Shown here: one piece after another, positions 6,646-49,845 of the stretch | Numbering within the stretch: the stretch's first letter is position 1 | How the letters are laid out: each line of letters begins with the position of its first letter | IMG/VR virus record: IMGVR_UViG_3300036828_000667 | Coordinates: 49,839 to 113,838 of that record | DNA length: 64,000 nucleotides | Reading direction: 5' to 3' (one strand) | DNA from: a virus | The notes under the pieces: model-generated | What the model was told of the DNA's origin: nothing | Seen by the model: only the letters and a program-made list of their open reading frames with translations | The model's database searches: none | Made by a program: the position numbers and the translations under genes

Positions 6646-6704
6646 GTGCGGTTTGGTTAGGAATGCAGTGGCTCGGCAGGGTTCGCTTCGGTTTGGTATG
6701 GTTC
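6644..6704 (-). ncRNA. Pentamer-coded guide-like unit U3
   Basis: 11 GG/GC-NNN periods on plus strand, ACCGCACAA handle, 3' hairpin, promoter at 6716-6744. Confidence 0.75.
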
Positions 6705-7356: not shown

Positions 7357-7362
7357 TTCTTC

Positions 7363-7426
7363 GGCGAACCGGTCCAATCCGAACCGACCCTATCCCTACC
7401 GGACCCTTGCACAGCATACCGCACAT
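7363..7426 (+). ncRNA. Pentamer-coded guide-like unit U4
   Basis: 12 periods; decodes to EGNEDYLGL vs DTNDDYLGL in the upstream gene. Confidence 0.8.
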
Positions 7427-7429
7427 CTA

Positions 7430-7460
7430 CCCCTCAGGCTGTATTACACAGCCTGAGGGG
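7430..7460 (+). terminator. Intrinsic terminator after U4
   Basis: CCCCTCAGGCTGT...ACAGCCTGAGGGG followed by TTATTATT. Confidence 0.7.
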
Positions 7461-7483
7461 TTATTATTATTAGGAGGTTAGAG

Positions 7484-11810: not shown

Positions 11811-12338
11811 ATGGCAAAACACAATGAAGAAAATGATCTATGGTTCCTTAGCAAAATCGCAGATGGAACCATTTCTGTATCCGAAGACGGAGAGGTCTTC
11901 AACAACAAGACAGGTAGATATATAGGCGCTCAACAAGGAGCAGGTTACCTTAAGATTTCTATGGCAAAGAGAGTTGATGGAAAACTTGTTATTGTCCATA
12001 TGCAAATCCATAGGTTAGTATGGCTACATTTCAAAGGACCTATTCCTCAGGGACTAGAAGTCAATCACAAAGATTTAAACAAATCGAACCCACGATTGTC
12101 AAATCTAGATTTACAAACACCCAAAGGGAATGCTGAACATGCCACCTTAAATGGTGTTGACCGACGCTCAAAAACAGGAGGCCATAAAAACGCTAATGCC
12201 AAATTTACACGTGAACAAGTCGAGATGCTACGGAGACAATTCAAATCGAAAGAAACCACAGTTAAAGAAATAATGATAAACTATAGTGTTTCTAAGCCAG
12301 TTGTGTATTGGATGCTGGAAGGAAGGACCTATAAATAG
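11811..12338 (+). CDS. HNH homing endonuclease
   Basis: HRLVW..F.G.IP.GLEVNHKD.NK.N....NL. Confidence 0.9.
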   Translation: MAKHNEENDLWFLSKIADGTISVSEDGEVFNNKTGRYIGAQQGAGYLKISMAKRVDGKLVIVHMQIHRLVWLHFKGPIPQGLEVNHKDLNKSNPRLSNLDLQTPKGNAEHATLNGVDRRSKTGGHKNANAKFTREQVEMLRRQFKSKETTVKEIMINYSVSKPVVYWMLEGRTYK

Positions 12339-12363: not shown

Positions 12364-12693
12364 ATGGTAGAATTTGGAGCGTTCATTCGCAAAGAACGAG
12401 AGGCCAGAGATATTAGCTTACGAAAGATGGCCAAGAAGATTGGTGTAAGTGCAACCTATCTATCACAAGTGGAACTTGATAGGTTCCCACCACCAACTGA
12501 GGATAGGGTAAAGGCTATTGCCAAGATCATTGACTGTAATCCTGACTACCTACTGGCCAAAGCTGGACGGATCTCGACCGACATTTCCGACATCATTAAA
12601 CGTCGTCCGATCGAGCTTTCGATGCTTATTCGAGCCGCCAAGTACTTGAGTAACGATGACATTGCCCAATTGATTAATGCGGCGTCAGCGTAG
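12364..12693 (+). CDS. XRE-family HTH transcriptional regulator
   Basis: FGAFIRKERE...SLRKMA..IGVSATYLSQVE. Confidence 0.9.
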   Translation: MVEFGAFIRKEREARDISLRKMAKKIGVSATYLSQVELDRFPPPTEDRVKAIAKIIDCNPDYLLAKAGRISTDISDIIKRRPIELSMLIRAAKYLSNDDIAQLINAASA

Positions 12694-12787: not shown

Positions 12788-12973
12788 ATGCGTTGCGATC
12801 GGTGTCAGGGAACAGGCTGGGATCGGGCAGGAGTACACCCTGTACTTGGGCCGCTCTTCGATTGCAACCATCCGTGTACTGAATGCGGCGGGTCAGGCAT
12901 CGCCCACTGTTGCGACGGCATCTGCGAACAGCCTTCAATTGACAAGTCTATAGATGACAAGCTAACATCTTGA
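12788..12973 (+). CDS. Small DnaJ-type zinc-finger protein
   Basis: CDRCQGTG...CTECGGSG; GGAGAGG RBS. Confidence 0.65.
   Translation: MRCDRCQGTGWDRAGVHPVLGPLFDCNHPCTECGGSGIAHCCDGICEQPSIDKSIDDKLTS
12938..12968 (+). promoter_or_regulatory. Sigma70-type promoter driving U5
   Basis: TTGACA-N18-TAACAT. Confidence 0.55.
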
Positions 12974-13046
12974 CGCCTACCGTACCACTCCGACGCCAAC
13001 CACACCGAGCCGGTCCATACCTTTCCAAACCAAACCACACTTTTTT
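12974..13046 (+). ncRNA. Pentamer-coded guide-like unit U5
   Basis: 13 periods ending ACCAAACCACAC-TTTTTT. Confidence 0.75.
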
Positions 13047-13224
13047 ATTACTACTAGATATTCAGGAAAGGCGAACATGAGAGGTTAGGTTAAACTAACT
13101 TCGTTCTTCCTTTAGCTCAGCTACAAACTTCTTAATCAGAGTTGTTAAGGTTGGAGTGTGCTTAGCTGGAAAGTTACCAGCAAGTACCTTGGCAATAGCA
13201 TACCGAATTACCTTAAACTCTTCC

Positions 13225-13476
13225 TCAGTTAGCTCCAACGTTATCACTAGGCACCTCGCCTTTCTTTATCACGCTAACCTTACTATCATCGATCTTCAGA
13301 GTAAACCTCTTATTATCCACAACTTCTCGCCATCTATTTTCCTCAATATAAGCACAGGCTTTAAGGTAGTCCGTCAAACAAAAAACATGAGTATGTATCT
13401 GTGACCAACACGGATGCTCACGGCATAAGTGTTCAATCTTGGCGGCTAACTCCCTGAGTGGTGATTGCATACCCAA
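13225..13476 (-). CDS. Hypothetical protein
   Basis: GGAGG near start, plausible composition. Confidence 0.5.
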   Translation of the reverse strand: MGMQSPLRELAAKIEHLCREHPCWSQIHTHVFCLTDYLKACAYIEENRWREVVDNKRFTLKIDDSKVSVIKKGEVPSDNVGAN

Positions 13477-13571: not shown

Positions 13572-13641
13572 GTCGAACCGCTGCCTTGCTTGCCAAACCG
13601 GGCCAAGCCGGCGCGGACCAAACCTCCGCACACCGCACAAT
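13572..13641 (+). ncRNA. Pentamer-coded guide-like unit U6
   Basis: 13 periods decoding to EALLKGKGGKSTA, the peptide encoded at 13756-13794. Confidence 0.9.
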
Positions 13642-13676
13642 GGGAGTAGTCAAATGGCTTGCAGACTACTCCCATT
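13639..13676 (+). terminator. Stem-loop 3' of U6
   Basis: AATGGGAGTAGTC...GACTACTCCCATT 13-bp stem. Confidence 0.65.
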
Positions 13677-13695: not shown

Positions 13696-14337
13696 ATGCT
13701 AATTTCAGTCACGATCTCCGGAATCCGACCTTTAATCCTCGACGCGTTTTCCGAGGAAGCGTTGCTTAAGGGGAAGGGAGGAAAGAGTACAGCCCAGCCC
13801 AAGGAACTGAGTCCCTTGGATCAAGCCAAGCGTAGGTTATACTATAATGGAGATGGTACCGACGTTCCTATATTCCCAGCAGACAACCTACTCAGCTGTA
13901 TCATCGCTGCCGGGCGGTTTATCAAGGTCGGGAAAAGGCAACTAACTACTCGCGACAGTACGACAGTAACTTCATTCCTACAGATATCAGAACTATATCT
14001 TCCCATTAGGTCGATAGATGGATGGCGAGTCGACTCCAGGAGCATCGTCAACCCGTCTACAAAAGGTCGTCACATATGCTACCGTCCCATCTTTGACGAC
14101 TGGGAGTTAGATTTCACGCTCGACATCGATACGAATGAAGCGAGCGACAGCTTGGTTAGACAGTTGATTGATAGAGCAGGTAGGTTTATCGGGATCGGGG
14201 TCATGCGGCCCGAAAGGAAGCGGCAGTATGGGCAATACGTGGTGCGCTGCTGGGATTGCCGTTCAGAACATGAAGAGCTTGACAACATACCAAAACTTGC
14301 TAAGAAAACTAAGACTAGATCGAAAGAACTAGTCTAA
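13696..14337 (+). CDS. Stand-alone RAMP / Cas7-like RNA-binding protein, candidate effector of the pentamer guides
   Basis: N-terminal strand ISGIRPLIL, PIFPADNLLSCI (cf. RAMP P.IPGSSLKG), C-terminal Gly-rich loop GIGVMRPERKRQYGQYVV; AGGAG RBS. Confidence 0.75.
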   Translation: MLISVTISGIRPLILDAFSEEALLKGKGGKSTAQPKELSPLDQAKRRLYYNGDGTDVPIFPADNLLSCIIAAGRFIKVGKRQLTTRDSTTVTSFLQISELYLPIRSIDGWRVDSRSIVNPSTKGRHICYRPIFDDWELDFTLDIDTNEASDSLVRQLIDRAGRFIGIGVMRPERKRQYGQYVVRCWDCRSEHEELDNIPKLAKKTKTRSKELV

Positions 14338-14467
14338 CACTGGTTCATCGCGGACCGTACCGGAGCGTGCCATGCCCGTCCCCGCCGAGCCCGACCAAAC
14401 CAGACCCAACCTACGCGGACCCAGCCTATCCTTAGCGTAGCACACCGCACAGTTAAGGCCAAAACCA

Positions 14468-14511
14468 GAAGGAAGGAGATACGGAAATGAAACCACGCAT
14501 CTCCTTCCTTC
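14468..14511 (+). terminator. Stem-loop 3' of unit A
   Basis: GAAGGAAGGAGAT...ATCTCCTTCCTTC. Confidence 0.6.
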
Positions 14512-15110
14512 AAACCCAAGTTTCGAACAATCCATGCCACTGCAAACCGCGCCAGCCCTATGCCTACCACTGTGAACCGCTCCACACCATTCTTTTATCA
14601 ATTATCAAGTCAACACTCCGAACCAGACCCCGCCTTACCCAACAGCACCCCACCAAACCGGACCGACCCACTCCAATGTGCACCTCAGCAGACCGAAGCA
14701 CACCATACTTTATCAATTGCCTTCCCGACCCGAGCTATGCCCAACCGACCCGACCCACTCCGGGCCGCACCCCTCCCTCCCATCCCGCAGCACACCATAC
14801 TTTATTTCATTACGACTCTCCGGCCCTACGCCAACCACACCAGCCCGGAGCGTGCCATACCGCACCATACTTTTATCATTTCAATGCGCACCGTCCCTCA
14901 CCGTGCCATCTCTCACCCGACCATACCATCCCTCCCCACCTCGGCCCGGACCCCGCCGATGCAAACCACACCATACTTTATCAATTTTCAGAACCATCCC
15001 GACCGTACCAGTGCGCGCCATTCCAATGCAGCCCTCGCCTCCGCATGTCAGGCCGCCCCGACCCATGCCGCACCAAACCACACTTTCTTTATCAACTAAG
15101 GAGAACCAGC

Positions 15111-15311
15111 ATGACCACACATCGTCCCACATTCGAAGACTGGCAGCTAGACTTCACTTTGGATTATAATGAAACTGAAATAGATGAAGGTACTATACGT
15201 AAGCTAATCGAAGTAGTAGCTGGAACGCACATAGGACTTGGCTCTATGCGCCCAGAACGACATGGACCCTATGGACAGTTTAAGATCAAGGAATGGACTC
15301 CACATTCTTAG
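15111..15311 (+). CDS. 66-aa truncated paralog of the RAMP protein C-terminus
   Basis: AAGGAG RBS; RPTFEDWQLDFTLD...IGLGSMRPERHGPYGQF aligns with RPIFDDWELDFTLD...IGIGVMRPERKRQYGQY. Confidence 0.8.
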   Translation: MTTHRPTFEDWQLDFTLDYNETEIDEGTIRKLIEVVAGTHIGLGSMRPERHGPYGQFKIKEWTPHS

Positions 15312-15598
15312 TCTTATCCATCTCTGCTTACCGTAGCCCTCATCACCGCACCCGTGAGCACCGACCCATGCCTGAGCCTACCTCAGCATACCCAACCGCA
15401 GCAACCCGGTGCGAACCAAACCACACTATTTTTTATACAATTTCAACTTACCGTCCCGGCCCGAGCCAGTCCATCGTGCGCCGACCCGTCGCTCCCCATA
15501 CCGCACTATACTTTATTCATTACCAACCATGCCATACCATGCCATTCCGGAACGCTGCCCTCCGGTCCACACCACACTTTCTTTAGGAGTTTAACCAG

Positions 15599-15844
15599 AT
15601 GGCAAAGGTAACTGGTATTGACGGTAAAAGCTTTATCAAAGGTCAACGTTTTGGTAAGCTAGTTGCGGTACGTCCACTAGGCTGGAGTAGTGACCGCAGC
15701 TGGTGTTGGCTATGTAAGTGTGATTGCGGCAATGAGACTATCTTAAGTGCTAACAGACTTCGAAGTGGTGAAGTTCAAGCTTGTGGATACGCTGTAACTA
15801 TAAAATCAGACACAAATGAGGAACACTGTAACGGACAGATATAA
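15599..15844 (+). CDS. N-terminal fragment of an HNH/AP2-type endonuclease family protein
   Basis: GQRFGKLV...W.CKCDCG......LRSG...CG; no nuclease domain. Confidence 0.65.
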   Translation: MAKVTGIDGKSFIKGQRFGKLVAVRPLGWSSDRSWCWLCKCDCGNETILSANRLRSGEVQACGYAVTIKSDTNEEHCNGQI

Positions 15845-16158
15845 TGACAAAGCCTACCATTACTGTCAAACAGAATCCCAATGAAGGTGACGTAGCTGAC
15901 TTCGTAGTTTGTCACCGTGTTTCTGTGCTACCTATCCCGTACGTGTCAGCTGAGATCCAACATTGCTCCAGATGTAACGAAAGGATATGGGTTGCAAACA
16001 CCTCTCCATCTAAGCCTCCTAAACTATGCTGGGAATGTTCAATTCCTCTAATTGCCAAAGACGACGATACAAGAATAATGATTACCGAACGGCAACGGGC
16101 AGAGGTTCAGAAGTATATGCAACTAGTCCAGAAACTCCAGGAGAAAAATGAAAAGTGA
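15844..16158 (+). CDS. Zinc-binding hypothetical protein
   Basis: CSRC...CWEC. Confidence 0.65.
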   Translation: MTKPTITVKQNPNEGDVADFVVCHRVSVLPIPYVSAEIQHCSRCNERIWVANTSPSKPPKLCWECSIPLIAKDDDTRIMITERQRAEVQKYMQLVQKLQEKNEK

Positions 16159-16408
16159 ACGTCATAAGATGCTCGAAATAGCCATGAGGTATCTCGACAG
16201 ACTATTCAACGGTAATGATAAAACAATAGAAAAAAGCACTGGAATTGTATTACTTACGTTCTCCTTTACTGACGAAGATGGTAATCATTGCGGTGATGAC
16301 AATGGGACTATCATCACCAATGGCATAGAAAGGGAACACATTGTAGGCATTATGGAAGCAATGCTAGAAAGACTGAAGGCAGACGATATACTTTTCAGAC
16401 GACATTAA
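16148..16408 (+). CDS. Hypothetical protein, paralog of the 7484-8080 C-terminal half
   Basis: LDRLFNG...TGIVLLTF.F...ITNG. Confidence 0.7.
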   Translation: MKSERHKMLEIAMRYLDRLFNGNDKTIEKSTGIVLLTFSFTDEDGNHCGDDNGTIITNGIEREHIVGIMEAMLERLKADDILFRRH

Positions 16409-16414
16409 AGACCT

Positions 16415-16969
16415 TTAAGTAGCATCATAGGCAAACTCACCAGCCAAACGTTTGGAAGCTTCCTCATACGCCTGAACCGCCTCTTCTACTGTGTTAAAGG
16501 TACCGATCTGAACGTCTTTATACATATGTTTTATTCTAGCCTCCCATTTTCCTGTGCTTTTCTTGTACCTTACTCCCTTAAAACCACTTGTATTATTTTT
16601 GAACATAGGACGATTGTAGCAATTCTGCTGTGTCGTCGCTGGACGAAGATTAGTCCATATATTGTTACCTGGATTTAGATCCTTATGATCTATCTCATAA
16701 TTAGGCCATTCTCCTGTCACATATAACCATATAATACGATGTACTTGATACATTCTGCCATTAACTTTTACCTGTATACGTCCTCCTTTCTTAATAGAAC
16801 CCGCCGTACTTCCAATAACAATCCTCCAGTTTAACGCCTCCTTCCATGTAAGTATACCAGTTTCAGGATCATAGTTAAAAATCTGCCTAACAAACTCAGC
16901 TGTTAGACTATTGTTATAGATACGAGTCCCCATTTTTACGCTCCTGTAGTGGCAGCCTTTACTGCCCAA
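16415..16969 (-). CDS. HNH endonuclease with C-terminal AP2 domain (likely start 16933)
   Basis: YDPETG, HRIIW, IDHKD....NN...NLR, NNTSGFKGV..W.A.I. Confidence 0.9.
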   Translation of the reverse strand: MGSKGCHYRSVKMGTRIYNNSLTAEFVRQIFNYDPETGILTWKEALNWRIVIGSTAGSIKKGGRIQVKVNGRMYQVHRIIWLYVTGEWPNYEIDHKDLNPGNNIWTNLRPATTQQNCYNRPMFKNNTSGFKGVRYKKSTGKWEARIKHMYKDVQIGTFNTVEEAVQAYEEASKRLAGEFAYDAT

Positions 16970-17139
16970 TGAACAGCCTCTTCATAAGCGGTTTGTGCTA
17001 AGGACGCTAACCTAGCATCTTTCGATTTCAGAGTTTCACATAGGTCGATCAACTCAGCAGACTTTTGCTTGATCTCATCAACTATAGTATCTGCACTTGG
17101 ATTAAATGCAGTCCGAACTCGTTGTTCACCGATTGTCAT
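16936..17139 (-). CDS. Acb2/Tad1-like helical-hairpin protein (possible nucleotide-signal sponge)
   Basis: R.ASLAQT.YEEA..WAVKA motif; AGGAG RBS. Confidence 0.55.
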   Translation of the reverse strand: MTIGEQRVRTAFNPSADTIVDEIKQKSAELIDLCETLKSKDARLASLAQTAYEEAVHWAVKAATTGA

Positions 17140-17150
17140 AGTACTCTCCT

Positions 17151-17181
17151 CTTGACAAGTTCACCTTGTTACACCTACGAT
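17151..17181 (+). promoter_or_regulatory. Sigma70-type promoter driving unit K
   Basis: CTTGACA-N18-TACGAT. Confidence 0.65.
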
Positions 17182-17186
17182 GATTA

Positions 17187-17246
17187 CTCGAACCGACCCC
17201 GTCCAGGCCACTCCTCCGCCCACCGACGCAAACCGCACAATTTTAT
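17187..17246 (+). ncRNA. Pentamer-coded guide-like unit K
   Basis: 10 periods ending ACCGCACAATTTT. Confidence 0.75.
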
Positions 17247-17361
17247 ATCCTACCATTTTCCACTACTTAGTTGGCTAGCAATAAGTCAAGCGTATAATTC
17301 TAAGACCCTACAAGACATACAAATGGGAACGTCCTAAAACCCGCAACAGAAAGTCCCGATC

Positions 17362-17529
17362 ATGCTAAGCATGGGCGACAAGGTAATAAAGGACACTGGC
17401 GACTATACTTTTTCGGGTGTCGTCATCGCAGTATTCCTAAAACGCAATGGTACTGCTGTAAGGTATGTAGTAGAGAACGAAGAAGGTATCTGCCACATAT
17501 TCAACGACCGCCAAATTAGAAAGGTTTAA
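17362..17529 (+). CDS. 55-aa SH3-like phage protein, not in the ORF track
   Basis: MLSMGDKVIKDTGDYTFSGVVIAVFLKRNGTAVRYVVENEEGICHIFNDRQIRKV, translated by hand. Confidence 0.65.
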   Translation: MLSMGDKVIKDTGDYTFSGVVIAVFLKRNGTAVRYVVENEEGICHIFNDRQIRKV

Positions 17530-17534
17530 TTTAT

Positions 17535-17777
17535 GTGAAGAAGTGTGACTATGCACATCAAGAAAGGTACAGAAGAGTGACAAAGGCAGAACTGACTTGT
17601 AGCGTATGCGGCAAACGTTATGAAACTCTAGGAGACTATGGGGACGACGTTGACTGCCAAATGATCTGTTTTCGCTGCTTCGAACAAGCTGATGCCATCT
17701 CTGCTCAGCAGAATCGCTGGCCTGATGGTCGAGACTTTCGTTACTTACGAGATATGAAAAAGCATCATCAAAAGTAG
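17535..17777 (+). CDS. Zinc-binding hypothetical protein
   Basis: CSVC...CFRC. Confidence 0.55.
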   Translation: MKKCDYAHQERYRRVTKAELTCSVCGKRYETLGDYGDDVDCQMICFRCFEQADAISAQQNRWPDGRDFRYLRDMKKHHQK

Positions 17778-17812
17778 ACCACACAATTACCATAATCAGA
17801 TTATACAAACTA

Positions 17813-17915
17813 ACCATACCGAGCCGAGCCGTTGCCGCACCATACTTTATCAATTTGATTCCCACCACACCTCCCCGGACCTATCCAGCCCCCTGCAAAC
17901 CGCACCATACTTACT
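17813..17915 (+). ncRNA. Two short pentamer units: L (17813-17855, with a 1-nt phase slip) and M (17859-17915)
   Basis: Same period and ACCATACTT tail as the main array. Confidence 0.7.
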
Positions 17916-17928
17916 TGTAATATAAATA

Positions 17929-18237: not shown

Positions 18238-18321
18238 ATTTAAACCTCCTACCTTTCACAGAACCGCTATACTTTATCCATAATCCACACTTAGTGATTT
18301 AGAAGTCAGCCAAGAGTTCTC

Positions 18322-18457
18322 TGCGTACCGACTCTTTCCGGACCGGACTGTACCACACTATACCATACCTCACCTACCCATACCTCGCCTAACCACGCCT
18401 TTGCGACCCGGAGCGTGCCTCGCCTACCCAATGCGACCCTGACCACAGCACACAATT
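18322..18457 (+). ncRNA. Pentamer-coded guide-like unit N (26 periods)
   Basis: Decoded reverse complement reads VVQSLYDTPSNVYDMYDIIVTPPKST, matching the terminase C-terminus. Confidence 0.9.
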
Positions 18458-18514: not shown

Positions 18515-20440
18515 CTACGCAATTCTTTGAAACCTATCACCAAGAGACTGCAACGTATCCCTTATAGAGCCGTAAGCTTCATATACGTTGCTGGGCGTGT
18601 CGTAAAGCGACTGTACCGCATTATAAGTCGCAGCGCATAGGCTGTCCGCCATGTCGCAATGACTACCTTCTAATTGCGCCTTCACGACCTTATTATTTTC
18701 GAACCAGATGGATTCCAGTTCCTTCTTCAAGTCACGCATCATTCCAGTTTTGAGGCAATCAGTCGCGACAATGTTACTAAGAACATCATATGGTGTACGT
18801 GTCTTTTCCACGCTCAACACCTCCACAGTCTCAGCATACCCTATCGATGTAAGCTTCTGTATCAATTGTTCACTCTGATATTGGTCAGCTGTGAAAGTCT
18901 TGAACCCTAGACCATAGTAATCTCTCAAGTCTATAATGAACTCCTTGACTGCTTCCAAATTGATACGGTTTGGACTTGTGATCCTTAGAACCAAATCAGC
19001 GACGTATATCACCTTGCCTGTCCGGCTAAGCTCCTTGTGGACTACGGATAGCCCAGCTGAACTCACAGCAGCACCGTCCCAAGCTCCGTATCTAGTAGCC
19101 GCTGGATATCTTTTCCATCTGTATCCTTCAGGCGTAGCTATAAACAAGTCTCTCGGTAGCTGCTCTCGTAGCGGGGCTGGGATAGGCTGATTGGCATTAC
19201 CAAGAGGTGCCGAAACATAAAGAATCGGGCAGAGGTTTGGATCTTCGACTTTGCTGAGGTCATCGAAAGGCACCTCCTGACCCATGCTCGCTTGACCAGC
19301 TAGATTCATCAGGGATTGCTCTGTCCTTCTTTCAAAGTCACGTTGATATCGCTTAGGGACTTTCACTAGTGTACAAGACGGTGGAAGATCAAACTTGTCA
19401 TTCTCAGCTAGTACACTTTCTCTAGGTTCAAGTACCCTTGATGGGTGTCTTTGAGTACCACGCATACACCAGAAGTGACCATCATGTTTAAGCGCATCAG
19501 GATACTTGGTATCCCATATGGAGTACTGACTGACTTTACCAGCTGGATCATTTCGAAGCTGGGCGATGTGAGTAGCCATAACCCCCTTCTCATGAGCAAT
19601 AGAAGACAATAGAGTCATTAGCGTATAGCGGACTCCCAAGAACCTGGACCTTATGCGTTCAAAGATGTTGTCATATAGTGTAAATGCCTTGTCTACGAGA
19701 CCCTTGCTACCAATTCGAAATTCTGCCTCGTCGAGCATACCTCCAAACACATCTTCACCCAGAACATGTCGATCCTGTGATCCAGCGTAAATCTTTACGT
19801 TATTAGGAAACTCAAATCCTTCTCCATTGAATACCCATGGTGTAAGTTTCTCTAATTCAGGATCGTTCTCAAATTCAAGGAAGTCCCTTAAATGATTCAC
19901 CTTCCTGTAGTCCTTACAGGCTGAGAGCAATATCCCAACACGTTCAATCAGAGTGCTCTGGGCCTTCTCCTTAGTAACAGTAAACAGCTGTAGGATCATC
20001 GGCTTTGATGGGCCGGTACCCATACTCAGCTGAGGATTCCTGAAAGAGTTTATCCTGTAAACATTATACAATTGTGCTATTAAACCAGCAGTGCTCTTAC
20101 CAGTGCCAATAGCACCAGTTACTCCCCATCTACAGATAATAGATTTAGGAGCAAATATCTCAATCAAATCCTTCTTCCAGTTAGGAAACAAGATTAGTGC
20201 ATCATCCCCTATATAATCAGGAGTTAGAAACTCTTCTATAGTAGGTATTGGTCTCTTGAAACACATAGTAGTCAAGTCAGGGACTTCTTTAAAATGACCT
20301 AGCATTGTCAACGCTAGGCCAAGACGTTTCTTCTCAGGTGGAATCTCCCTAAGTCGAGGGTTTCTGGCGTCCATATCCAACATAAACTGAGCAAACTCGC
20401 TAGACTCAGCAATTCTGTCAAGCTCCACAGGATCTATCAT
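18515..20440 (-). CDS. terL: Terminase large subunit
   Basis: Walker A GAIGTGKS, Walker B GMLDEAE, C-terminal RNase H-like acidic residues (WD, ADQYQS, D.AD). Confidence 0.85.
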   Translation of the reverse strand: MIDPVELDRIAESSEFAQFMLDMDARNPRLREIPPEKKRLGLALTMLGHFKEVPDLTTMCFKRPIPTIEEFLTPDYIGDDALILFPNWKKDLIEIFAPKSIICRWGVTGAIGTGKSTAGLIAQLYNVYRINSFRNPQLSMGTGPSKPMILQLFTVTKEKAQSTLIERVGILLSACKDYRKVNHLRDFLEFENDPELEKLTPWVFNGEGFEFPNNVKIYAGSQDRHVLGEDVFGGMLDEAEFRIGSKGLVDKAFTLYDNIFERIRSRFLGVRYTLMTLLSSIAHEKGVMATHIAQLRNDPAGKVSQYSIWDTKYPDALKHDGHFWCMRGTQRHPSRVLEPRESVLAENDKFDLPPSCTLVKVPKRYQRDFERRTEQSLMNLAGQASMGQEVPFDDLSKVEDPNLCPILYVSAPLGNANQPIPAPLREQLPRDLFIATPEGYRWKRYPAATRYGAWDGAAVSSAGLSVVHKELSRTGKVIYVADLVLRITSPNRINLEAVKEFIIDLRDYYGLGFKTFTADQYQSEQLIQKLTSIGYAETVEVLSVEKTRTPYDVLSNIVATDCLKTGMMRDLKKELESIWFENNKVVKAQLEGSHCDMADSLCAATYNAVQSLYDTPSNVYEAYGSIRDTLQSLGDRFQRIA

Positions 20441-49431: not shown

Positions 49432-49845
49432 TTATGACCAAGTTACGGAAGGGGCGAAGCCACATGTAAAATGGCACAAAACATGAGACTTGCCCCTCCC
49501 GCTTCTTCCCAACCTGTAGAAGTTGCCTGCTAAGCACTACAGATTGGAAACATAGAAATGGAAGGGACAGGTTCGCATTTGTCCCTCCCACTCCACCTTC
49601 TAGCCCAGAACCATAGCGACGGGAGCCCTGGACCAGAAAGCTCTAATCCTTTACCCCAACTCTTCGGAAAAAGAAAGGGGAGAGAGCCTTCAATTCTCTC
49701 CCCTTTGCGCAATTTTCAACAGCCGTATTCGAACGACCTTTCCCTTTCTATCACAGGTGAAATCATTTTCACCAGATCCGGCTCTCACCGAATTCTGTCA
49801 CTCGATTCGCCAGATACGAACTCCCCCTTAAATATAGCGATTAAG

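Follow-up and report, generated by a model that had tools for sequence, protein, structure and literature searches.

A divergent VIPR locus in a soil phage whose C-rich guide units spell the codons of its own vipr gene

VIPR (Viral Interference Programmable Repeat) systems were described in 2026 preprints (10.64898/2026.04.26.720920, 10.64898/2026.04.26.720927, 10.64898/2026.10.15.759431). The discovery paper (10.64898/2026.04.26.720920; PMC13142463) reported GGY/NN vrRNAs and a one-base skip rule, by which two guide bases pair with codon positions 1 and 2 and the wobble base is skipped; it is because of this rule that a guide made of 5-nt units can be “decoded” into codons. The second preprint (10.64898/2026.04.26.720927; PDB 36pp) covers the SUSP1 cryo-EM structure and the triplex. 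In the SUSP1 type II system, each pentamer is bound by one Vipr protomer; the fixed bases are flipped out into pockets of the protein, one strand of the double-stranded DNA target pairs with the variable bases, and the filament silences transcription (10.64898/2026.04.26.720920, 10.64898/2026.04.26.720927). The third preprint (10.64898/2026.10.15.759431, section 8) deals with satellites and with solo vrRNAs in SUSP1-family phages, which are directed against the start and end of the vipr genes of relatives and spare their own locus. VIPR has so far been presented as a wobble-blind code, whose targets would therefore be unable to escape by silent mutation. Non-canonical repeats are also named, as NNNGG, YNNNG and NNNNG in the methods text of the discovery paper and as GAC/NN, CAC/NN, WGT/NN and TGH/NN in the text of 10.64898/2026.10.21.760802.

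We analyzed a window of 64,000 nucleotides, namely the whole stretch from position 49,839 to 113,838 of the IMG/VR record IMGVR_UViG_3300036828_000667, and give coordinates relative to its first nucleotide. The host DNA is one 113.8-kb contig carrying phage gene families and HNH homing endonucleases, a viral or proviral setting as expected of VIPR. The sequencing runs that carry the stretch are two soil DNA metagenome runs, with no RNA run among them. Judged by its sequence, the locus is a VIPR system of a divergent clade, combining a lone Cas7-like Vipr with pentamer-coded vrRNAs in a 114-kb soil phage. We base this assignment on the profile of the vipr product, which matches the solved SUSP1 Vipr chain: a profile built from 35 Vipr homologues retrieved PDB 36pp_D (“SUSP1 Vipr protein”) with an E-value of 1.1e-14 over residues 16-184. 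The gene (13696-14337, + strand) encodes a lone minimal RAMP protein of 213 aa, homologous to Vipr and belonging to a clade with the G-loop G-I-G-V-M-R-P. An AlphaFold model of this protein (pLDDT 83) had Csm3 and type VII Cas7 as its best Foldseek matches (E-value 1e-6). In PHROGs the protein corresponds to phrog_4652 (unknown function, E-value 2e-16), a Pfam search returned no family, and none of its 95 metagenomic homologues carries a Pfam domain. Relatives of the protein were found on IMG/VR contigs; among the isolated phages of INPHARED the Vipr of this clade is absent, the sole matches being two distant Gordonia phages, and a DNA search of the phage collection gave no match.

The layout is likewise that of VIPR, with one guide unit upstream of vipr and ten downstream, all with a strict 5-nt period and sharing a common ...ACACC / CCGCACA end. 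The same layout of vipr and 5-nt tracts was seen in 21 relatives of the clade, and periodic arrays adjoin the Vipr gene in 80 viral and 21 metagenome loci of relatives. Comparison with 16 clade relatives retrieved no neighbor of vipr that is conserved with this locus and could stand for a vap gene. Around the locus we found neither CRISPR arrays (direct repeats of 25-40 nt with spacers) nor further cas genes, and an Rfam search of the locus gave no match. Less than 5 kb from the locus are three genes, or gene fragments, for HNH-type endonucleases (HNH_3, HNH+AP2), at 11811-12338 (+), 15599-15844 (+) and 16415-16969 (-); they resemble homing endonucleases and are not conserved partners of vipr among relatives. 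A gene for a Cro/CI-type HTH regulator (12364-12693, +) sits 0.3 kb upstream of a solo guide unit that starts at 12972, and the interval between this unit and the guide upstream of vipr holds two small overlapping ORFs of 50 and 83 aa (13095-13476, -) of no known family.

Parsing of pentamers across the 114-kb phage yielded about 30 guide units, of which about 20 are mini-genes scattered over the genome. Behind the first unit downstream of vipr, hereafter Unit A, array 1 (14529-15097, +) comprises six units starting at 14529, 14615, 14717, 14817, 14883 and 14995, with ...ACACC ends followed by a AUACUUUAUCAAUU-like tail, and array 2 (15323-15590, +) comprises three, starting at 15323, 15448 and 15524. 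These nine units have no match within the phage's own 113.8-kb genome and presumably point at foreign DNA. A 274-aa “ORF” (14487-15311, +) running through array 1 was rejected as an artefact of C-rich, stop-poor guide tracts, except for its last 66 codons, which are a real gene fragment. This fragment (15111-15311, +) is a truncated second vipr corresponding to the C-terminal third of the gene, diverged and with the G-loop GLGSMRP, as identified by phrog_4652 (E-value 1.9e-9) and by BLASTP to Vipr homologues. The remnant sits between arrays 1 and 2, as if a second VIPR locus had been fused to the first.

On the + strand of the window, the scattered units include a solo mini-gene at 7361-7461 (12 pentamers with GCACA behind them, preceded at 3 nt by the end of a TTGACA promoter and closed by a terminator hairpin of 14 bp, z -7.1), solo units at 12972-13036 (TTGACA-18-TAACAT promoter ending 3 nt upstream) and 17190-17234 (TTGACA-18-TACGAT promoter), a unit at 17862-17906 recognized by pentamer parsing as the second of a short pair, and a unit of 26 pentamers at 18320-18449. 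The 3' half of the latter matches 18540-18617, antisense to a 641-aa ORF, and the third letters of its triplets fall on wobble positions. On the - strand lie solo units at 6650-6704 (TTGACA promoter and terminator hairpin with z -7.06, both on the minus strand), 2548-2602 (TTGACA promoter) and 79-138 (TTGACA promoter), the last with a weak match (16/24) to a gene just left of the window. In total, seven guides spell a gene located 65-300 nt away, in codon phase and on either genomic strand. Six of these seven guide-gene pairs were established by first- and second-position matching alone; the remaining one was first seen as a peptide, and its match to the neighbor is merely a local best. Among the spelled genes other than vipr, a DUF7303 match was the only Pfam-type assignment, their functions being otherwise without assignment.

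Unit A (14347-14451, +) consists of 19 informative pentamers of the form NNN+CC/GC (14347-14441) and the constant end ACAcc-GCACA, followed by a 13-bp hairpin (14468-14511, +; -24.4 kcal/mol, z -4.57). Its triplets translate to IGVGVMRPERKRQYGQYLV, and the resident vipr gene, read in its own frame at 14188-14244 (+; codons 165-183, glycine-rich loop), gives IGIGVMRPERKRQYGQYVV. The two agree in 17/19 residues and 36/57 bases, with 34/38 matches at codon positions 1 and 2 and 2/19 at position 3. The original prediction, which had Unit A decode to the glycine-rich loop with 17/19 residues and 36/57 bases in agreement, was reproduced by direct reading and by scripted parsing; the edges it gave (14344-14439) are 2-3 nt off the register found here, which is immaterial to the decoding. 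The Unit A peptide scores 94 against the resident one with BLOSUM, where the maximum over shuffles is 36. With matching restricted to letters 1 and 2 of each triplet, the footprint is the single best site in the whole 113.8-kb genome, 100 nt away, with 34/40 matches (z = 13). Aligned to SUSP1 Vipr, it covers C173-R179, in the loop responsible for holding the fixed guide bases.

The unit upstream of vipr (13575-13639, +) has 12 NNN+CC/GC pentamers (13575-13634) followed by GCACA, and a hairpin after its CCGCACA tail (13639-13676, +; -21.7 kcal/mol, z -5.25) lies directly before the vipr ribosome-binding site. It spells EALLKGKGGKST, identical in 12/12 residues to Vipr residues 21-32. By first- and second-position matching, its footprint is 13756-13791 (+), which is the unique best site genome-wide, 122 nt away (20/24 matches), and the mismatches are swaps between codon families of one amino acid (Leu CTT/TTG, Leu TTG/CTT and Ser TCC/AGT). 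The RAMP gene is thus bracketed, as originally claimed, by two guides that spell RAMP sequence, with 12/12 residues upstream and 17/19 in Unit A.

Our preferred reading, to which we give a probability of roughly 0.55 on the sequence evidence, is a C-anchored VIPR in which three bases are read per protomer and guides against rivals are linked to silently recoded, self-immune alleles. The guides would be transcribed from the C-rich strand as 5'-(NNN CC)n-CCGCACA-hairpin, with the two C's held by the protein as anchors and all three variable bases matching the target codon, so that the published one-base skip would be absent. The targets of Unit A and the upstream unit would be the vipr genes of rival phages that are close relatives, with Unit A directed at the G-loop and the upstream unit at codons 21-32. 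Silent codon changes, in the form of wobble swaps and of Leu/Ser/Arg family swaps, would protect the resident vipr and five or more further genes of the phage that lie beside “their” guide. Through the tight linkage of guide and immune allele, each pair could act as a poison-antidote cassette in phage-phage competition.

Self-regulation, the alternative that survives best, has the guides bind genes of the phage itself: vipr would be under negative feedback from Unit A and the upstream unit, the other solo guides would time the expression of their neighbors, and the imperfect match would tune repression. Every such guide adjoins the gene it spells, and by the two-of-three rule the resident genes are the best known matches (79-89% of read positions), at or above the 80% cut-off of the VIPR papers. 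We scanned all 101 loci of relatives with Unit A and found that the best foreign vipr alleles match it at 31/38 of codon positions 1 and 2, compared with 34/38 for the resident. Searches of viral and genome contig collections with its first- and second-position pattern gave 0 hits. No vipr allele fitting Unit A better than the resident, nor any other better foreign target, turned up in the 101 loci or in these contig collections. The resident match of 34/38 exceeds the 80% target threshold; since the resident is itself a target under this published rule, autoregulation stays a rival. The residues E-R-K-R-Q-Y-G-Q-Y of Unit A are lineage-specific and common to Unit A and the resident only, and any real target of Unit A would have to be a very close relative outside the databases. 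The original description of the two units as guides against RAMP alleles did not gain an allele in these searches and is put here as a conditional reading only. Its proposal of system-versus-system conflict agrees with the published targeting of vipr in the SUSP1 family; autoregulation, which it had offered beside conflict, remains as the rival just described.

Both soil metagenomes that contain this phage also hold strain variants, with silent differences in vipr and different array content, which we take as evidence that rivals exist. On minor-strain contigs, eight changes fall in vipr between 13980 and 14193, five of them at third codon positions, including 14187 and 14193, which lie at the margin of the Unit A footprint. 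Some 35-40 nt beyond, the alignments of these contigs break off, as though the allele of the sibling diverged sharply within the footprint. Other contigs from the soil samples join across 14873-15144, 14982-15411 and 14987-17922, from which it follows that sibling strains lack or exchange guide units, and the joins probably arise through recombination between common tails. A comparison of two related phage loci, L090 and L091, showed that related phages exchange whole units while the tails are kept; it added no information on the third base.

Against self-regulation stands the codon usage of the seven guide-gene pairs, on which the codon comparisons of guide and resident are based (65-68 codons). 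Among pairs of codons for the same degenerate amino acid, 13/68 are identical, where about 25-26 would be expected from the codon usage of the phage (p = 5e-4) and 21.1 from permutation within each amino acid (p = 0.005). In 7/8 pairs Tyr switches between TAC and TAT, with either codon on the guide side, and a like pattern holds for Lys and Gln. At codon positions 1 and 2, 7/27 mismatched codons are silent, six of them being switches of codon family among Leu, Ser and Arg, and such switches occur in 6/8 of the pairs involving these amino acids. In the Unit A footprint, third positions are G or C in 17/20 codons, compared with 97/193 elsewhere in vipr (p = 0.004); over all footprints the difference in GC3 from the remainder of their genes is modest (p = 0.016), and codon typicality over whole footprints (relative codon frequency, guide versus resident) does not differ significantly (p = 0.12). 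A similarity of guide and resident codons below chance (13/68 versus 21-25), together with mismatches at read positions that are silent Leu/Ser/Arg swaps, is the mark of selection that disfavors pairing rather than promoting it. Furthermore, the VIPR papers report no self-targeting hits above 80% in their sets (10.64898/2026.04.26.720920, methods), and their guides spare their own locus (10.64898/2026.10.15.759431, section 8). We consider self-regulation unlikely on these grounds, if a serious contender. The self-avoidance that had been predicted is supported by the shortage of identical codons. Taken with the constraint on the third letter described below and with the family switches, this shortage speaks for a system that is sensitive to wobble mismatches, and for past selection on resident genes to diverge from the guides that spell them.

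A further alternative is an ordinary two-of-three code, in which only the first two letters are read and the third is a passive passenger inherited from the coding sequence from which the guide derived. This would agree with the published SUSP1 code, for which biochemistry and cryo-EM show the wobble base to be skipped, with that target base and its counterpart in the guide facing away from each other, and with the discovery paper, which names NNNGG-type repeats without a rule for them. The statistics of the third letter weigh against it. Over 368 triplets this letter is A in 40%, T in 23%, C in 21% and G in 17% of cases, with no fixed base class, unlike the Y of GGY. The base before CC had been said to be usually A or G, which is true of Unit A (15/19) and fails over all units. 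The decoded units contain fewer stop triplets than expected (9, compared with 16.2; p = 0.004), and after TA the third letter is C or T in 18/23 cases. In the seven pairs, the purine or pyrimidine class of the matched codon is kept in 34/36 cases in split codon boxes and in 13/29 in four-fold boxes (Fisher p = 1e-5). The third letter is thus constrained just where the amino acid depends on it, which fits matching to coding targets and not an unread base. A passive letter would have drifted to transversions equally in both kinds of box, whereas these make up 2/36 in split and 16/29 in four-fold boxes, and a two-of-three code gives resident wobble bases no reason to avoid those of the guide. We regard it as distinctly unlikely.

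Positions 1 and 2 match in codon phase as under gapped reading; the third letter likewise follows the codon, and the resident avoids it, which speaks against a one-base skip here, and we take the third base as probably read by the system. Earlier claims on this base fared unequally: that it is informative was supported by the difference between split and four-fold boxes and by the depletion of stop triplets, and that it is target-derived, if taken as copied from a target, would go beyond what the codon statistics support. We also considered G-U-type wobble pairing at the third position and rejected it, as 13 transitions between guide and resident were wobble-compatible and 11 incompatible.

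The true guide might also be the complementary G-rich strand, that is, a canonical-looking (GGNNN)n vrRNA antisense to vipr. Reverse-complementing the published GGY gives exactly RCC, and NNNGG repeats are mentioned in the discovery paper. The putative signals for transcription lie on the C-rich strand, however. Using the 21 units that have no other unit before them, we found TTGAC[AT] 20-50 nt upstream on this strand in 12/21, where 0.4 would be expected (p = 4e-16), compared with 1/21 in the opposite orientation. Strong hairpins (z -4.6 to -7.1) stand behind the CCGCACA end, one of them with a U-rich run, units on the minus strand keep the same order of promoter, unit and hairpin on that strand, and the C-rich strand is the vipr strand in all loci of the V-M clade. 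With a G-rich guide, the conserved end would fall 5', unlike in every described vrRNA. The strand that carries promoters and terminators shows NNN+CC/GC and not the GGY/NN consensus, and the guide RNA would accordingly read (NNNCC)n, not (GGYNN)n, as we infer from the promoter and terminator patterns. The VIPR papers admit “a related consensus” for some types, so that the lack of GGY/NN does not exclude membership in VIPR.

The protein side bears on the same alternative. In SUSP1 Vipr, D177 and W178 of the G-loop contact G1 and G2 (10.64898/2026.04.26.720927, section 5). By alignment, they correspond to V169 and M170 in the resident Vipr, with R138 and R179 conserved, so that it is precisely this clade that has lost the SUSP1 residues in contact with the G's. 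Of the loci with a V-M loop, 15/21 have CC runs on the vipr strand, compared with 0/36 of those with a D-[FY] loop (p = 2e-9), and GG runs occur in 28/36 of the latter. This correlation between G-loop and array type suggests that the two C's may be anchors held by the protein. A G-rich guide strand is, in our view, very unlikely. A 2.6-kb soil contig (L094) carries two vipr genes, each beside its own kind of array: one with a V-M loop (1838-2567 of that contig) accompanied by CC-type units, and one with a D-Y loop (289-943) followed at once by eight GG-type pentamers. It offers a natural side-by-side case of two repeat alphabets.

That the tracts have no guide function, and are simple C-rich repeats, G-quadruplex or i-motif DNA or a coding oddity (five-base codons), is scarcely credible: (GGNNN)n could form two-tetrad quadruplexes and the decoded triplets do resemble peptides, but the tracts accompany a Vipr homologue in more than 100 loci, carry their own promoters and terminators, lack start codons and match genes on either strand in codon phase.

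Extended to the whole clade (V-M-R G-loop, at least 90 protein clusters, soil and other metagenomes), the C-anchored reading with three bases per protomer would make this a second, orthogonal alphabet of VIPR, with three contiguous bases read per protomer and no skip. Wobble recoding would then hide the phage's own genes at at least seven loci, in guide-linked cassettes able to drive themselves through related phages. We put this extension forward tentatively, at somewhat less than even odds. If true, it would show that the repeat alphabet can evolve and can be orthogonal, as with the two kinds that coexist on one contig, and the clade would provide a second programmable format with contiguous reading of the target. 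It would also explain how a phage can carry guides against genes that it needs, its own copy being silently recoded and the guide and immune allele being adjacent. Such an arrangement of guide and immune allele would parallel, in nature, the toxin-antidote gene drives that have been engineered, and would give a testable account of the exclusion of close relatives by phage populations.

Compared with the SUSP1 type II system (Vipr, vap1 and vrRNAs), the locus has a homologous lone RAMP with one guide upstream and an array downstream, is likewise borne by a phage, and shares 5-nt units with a constant 3' end and targets that are protein-coding DNA, in codon register and on either strand. It differs in the fixed part of the repeat, which is CC (sometimes GC) on the putative transcribed strand and not GGY, and in having three free letters instead of two, the third following the target codon and probably not being skipped. 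V-M replaces D-W in the G-loop, the tail is CCGCACA with a hairpin, or a short A/U-rich spacer in arrays, in place of a pseudoknot, no vap gene is recognizable, and about 20 guide mini-genes are scattered genome-wide. The solo vrRNAs of SUSP1-family phages (10.64898/2026.10.15.759431) are similar in being aimed at the first codons and the end of vipr, in their wobble-aligned register and, as proposed for the guides here, in fitting non-self better than self; their carriers, however, have lost vipr, whereas the carrier here retains it, and the guides here adjoin the gene that they spell. Self-sparing here appears to operate through silent recoding that includes the wobble position, while that preprint deems wobble changes unable to give escape.

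The class 1 CRISPR Cas7 backbone (Csm3/Cmr4, type VII Cas7) shares with this system the RRM fold, glycine-rich loop and thumb, as seen in the predicted model, and one protomer per guide segment with flipped bases. The step here is 5 nt and not 6 nt, the system is encoded by a phage, and repeats, spacers, cas and adaptation genes are absent. Closer to the present clade are the non-canonical VIPR loci, where divergent Vipr-like proteins stand beside 5-nt arrays with other fixed letters; in particular, the NNNGG repeat resembles the present one in combining two fixed letters with three free ones. Should NNNGG turn out to be this clade seen on the other strand, the clade would already be in print, as far as the text of those papers goes, and its strand and rule would not. 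The core finding is of a published kind, including guides that target vipr and spare self. The text of the VIPR papers describes no CC-type repeat on the gene strand and no rule for reading three-letter units; relative to that text, what is new is the proposed C-type triplet code, the matching change in the protein and the apparent recoding of resident genes at the level of the wobble base.
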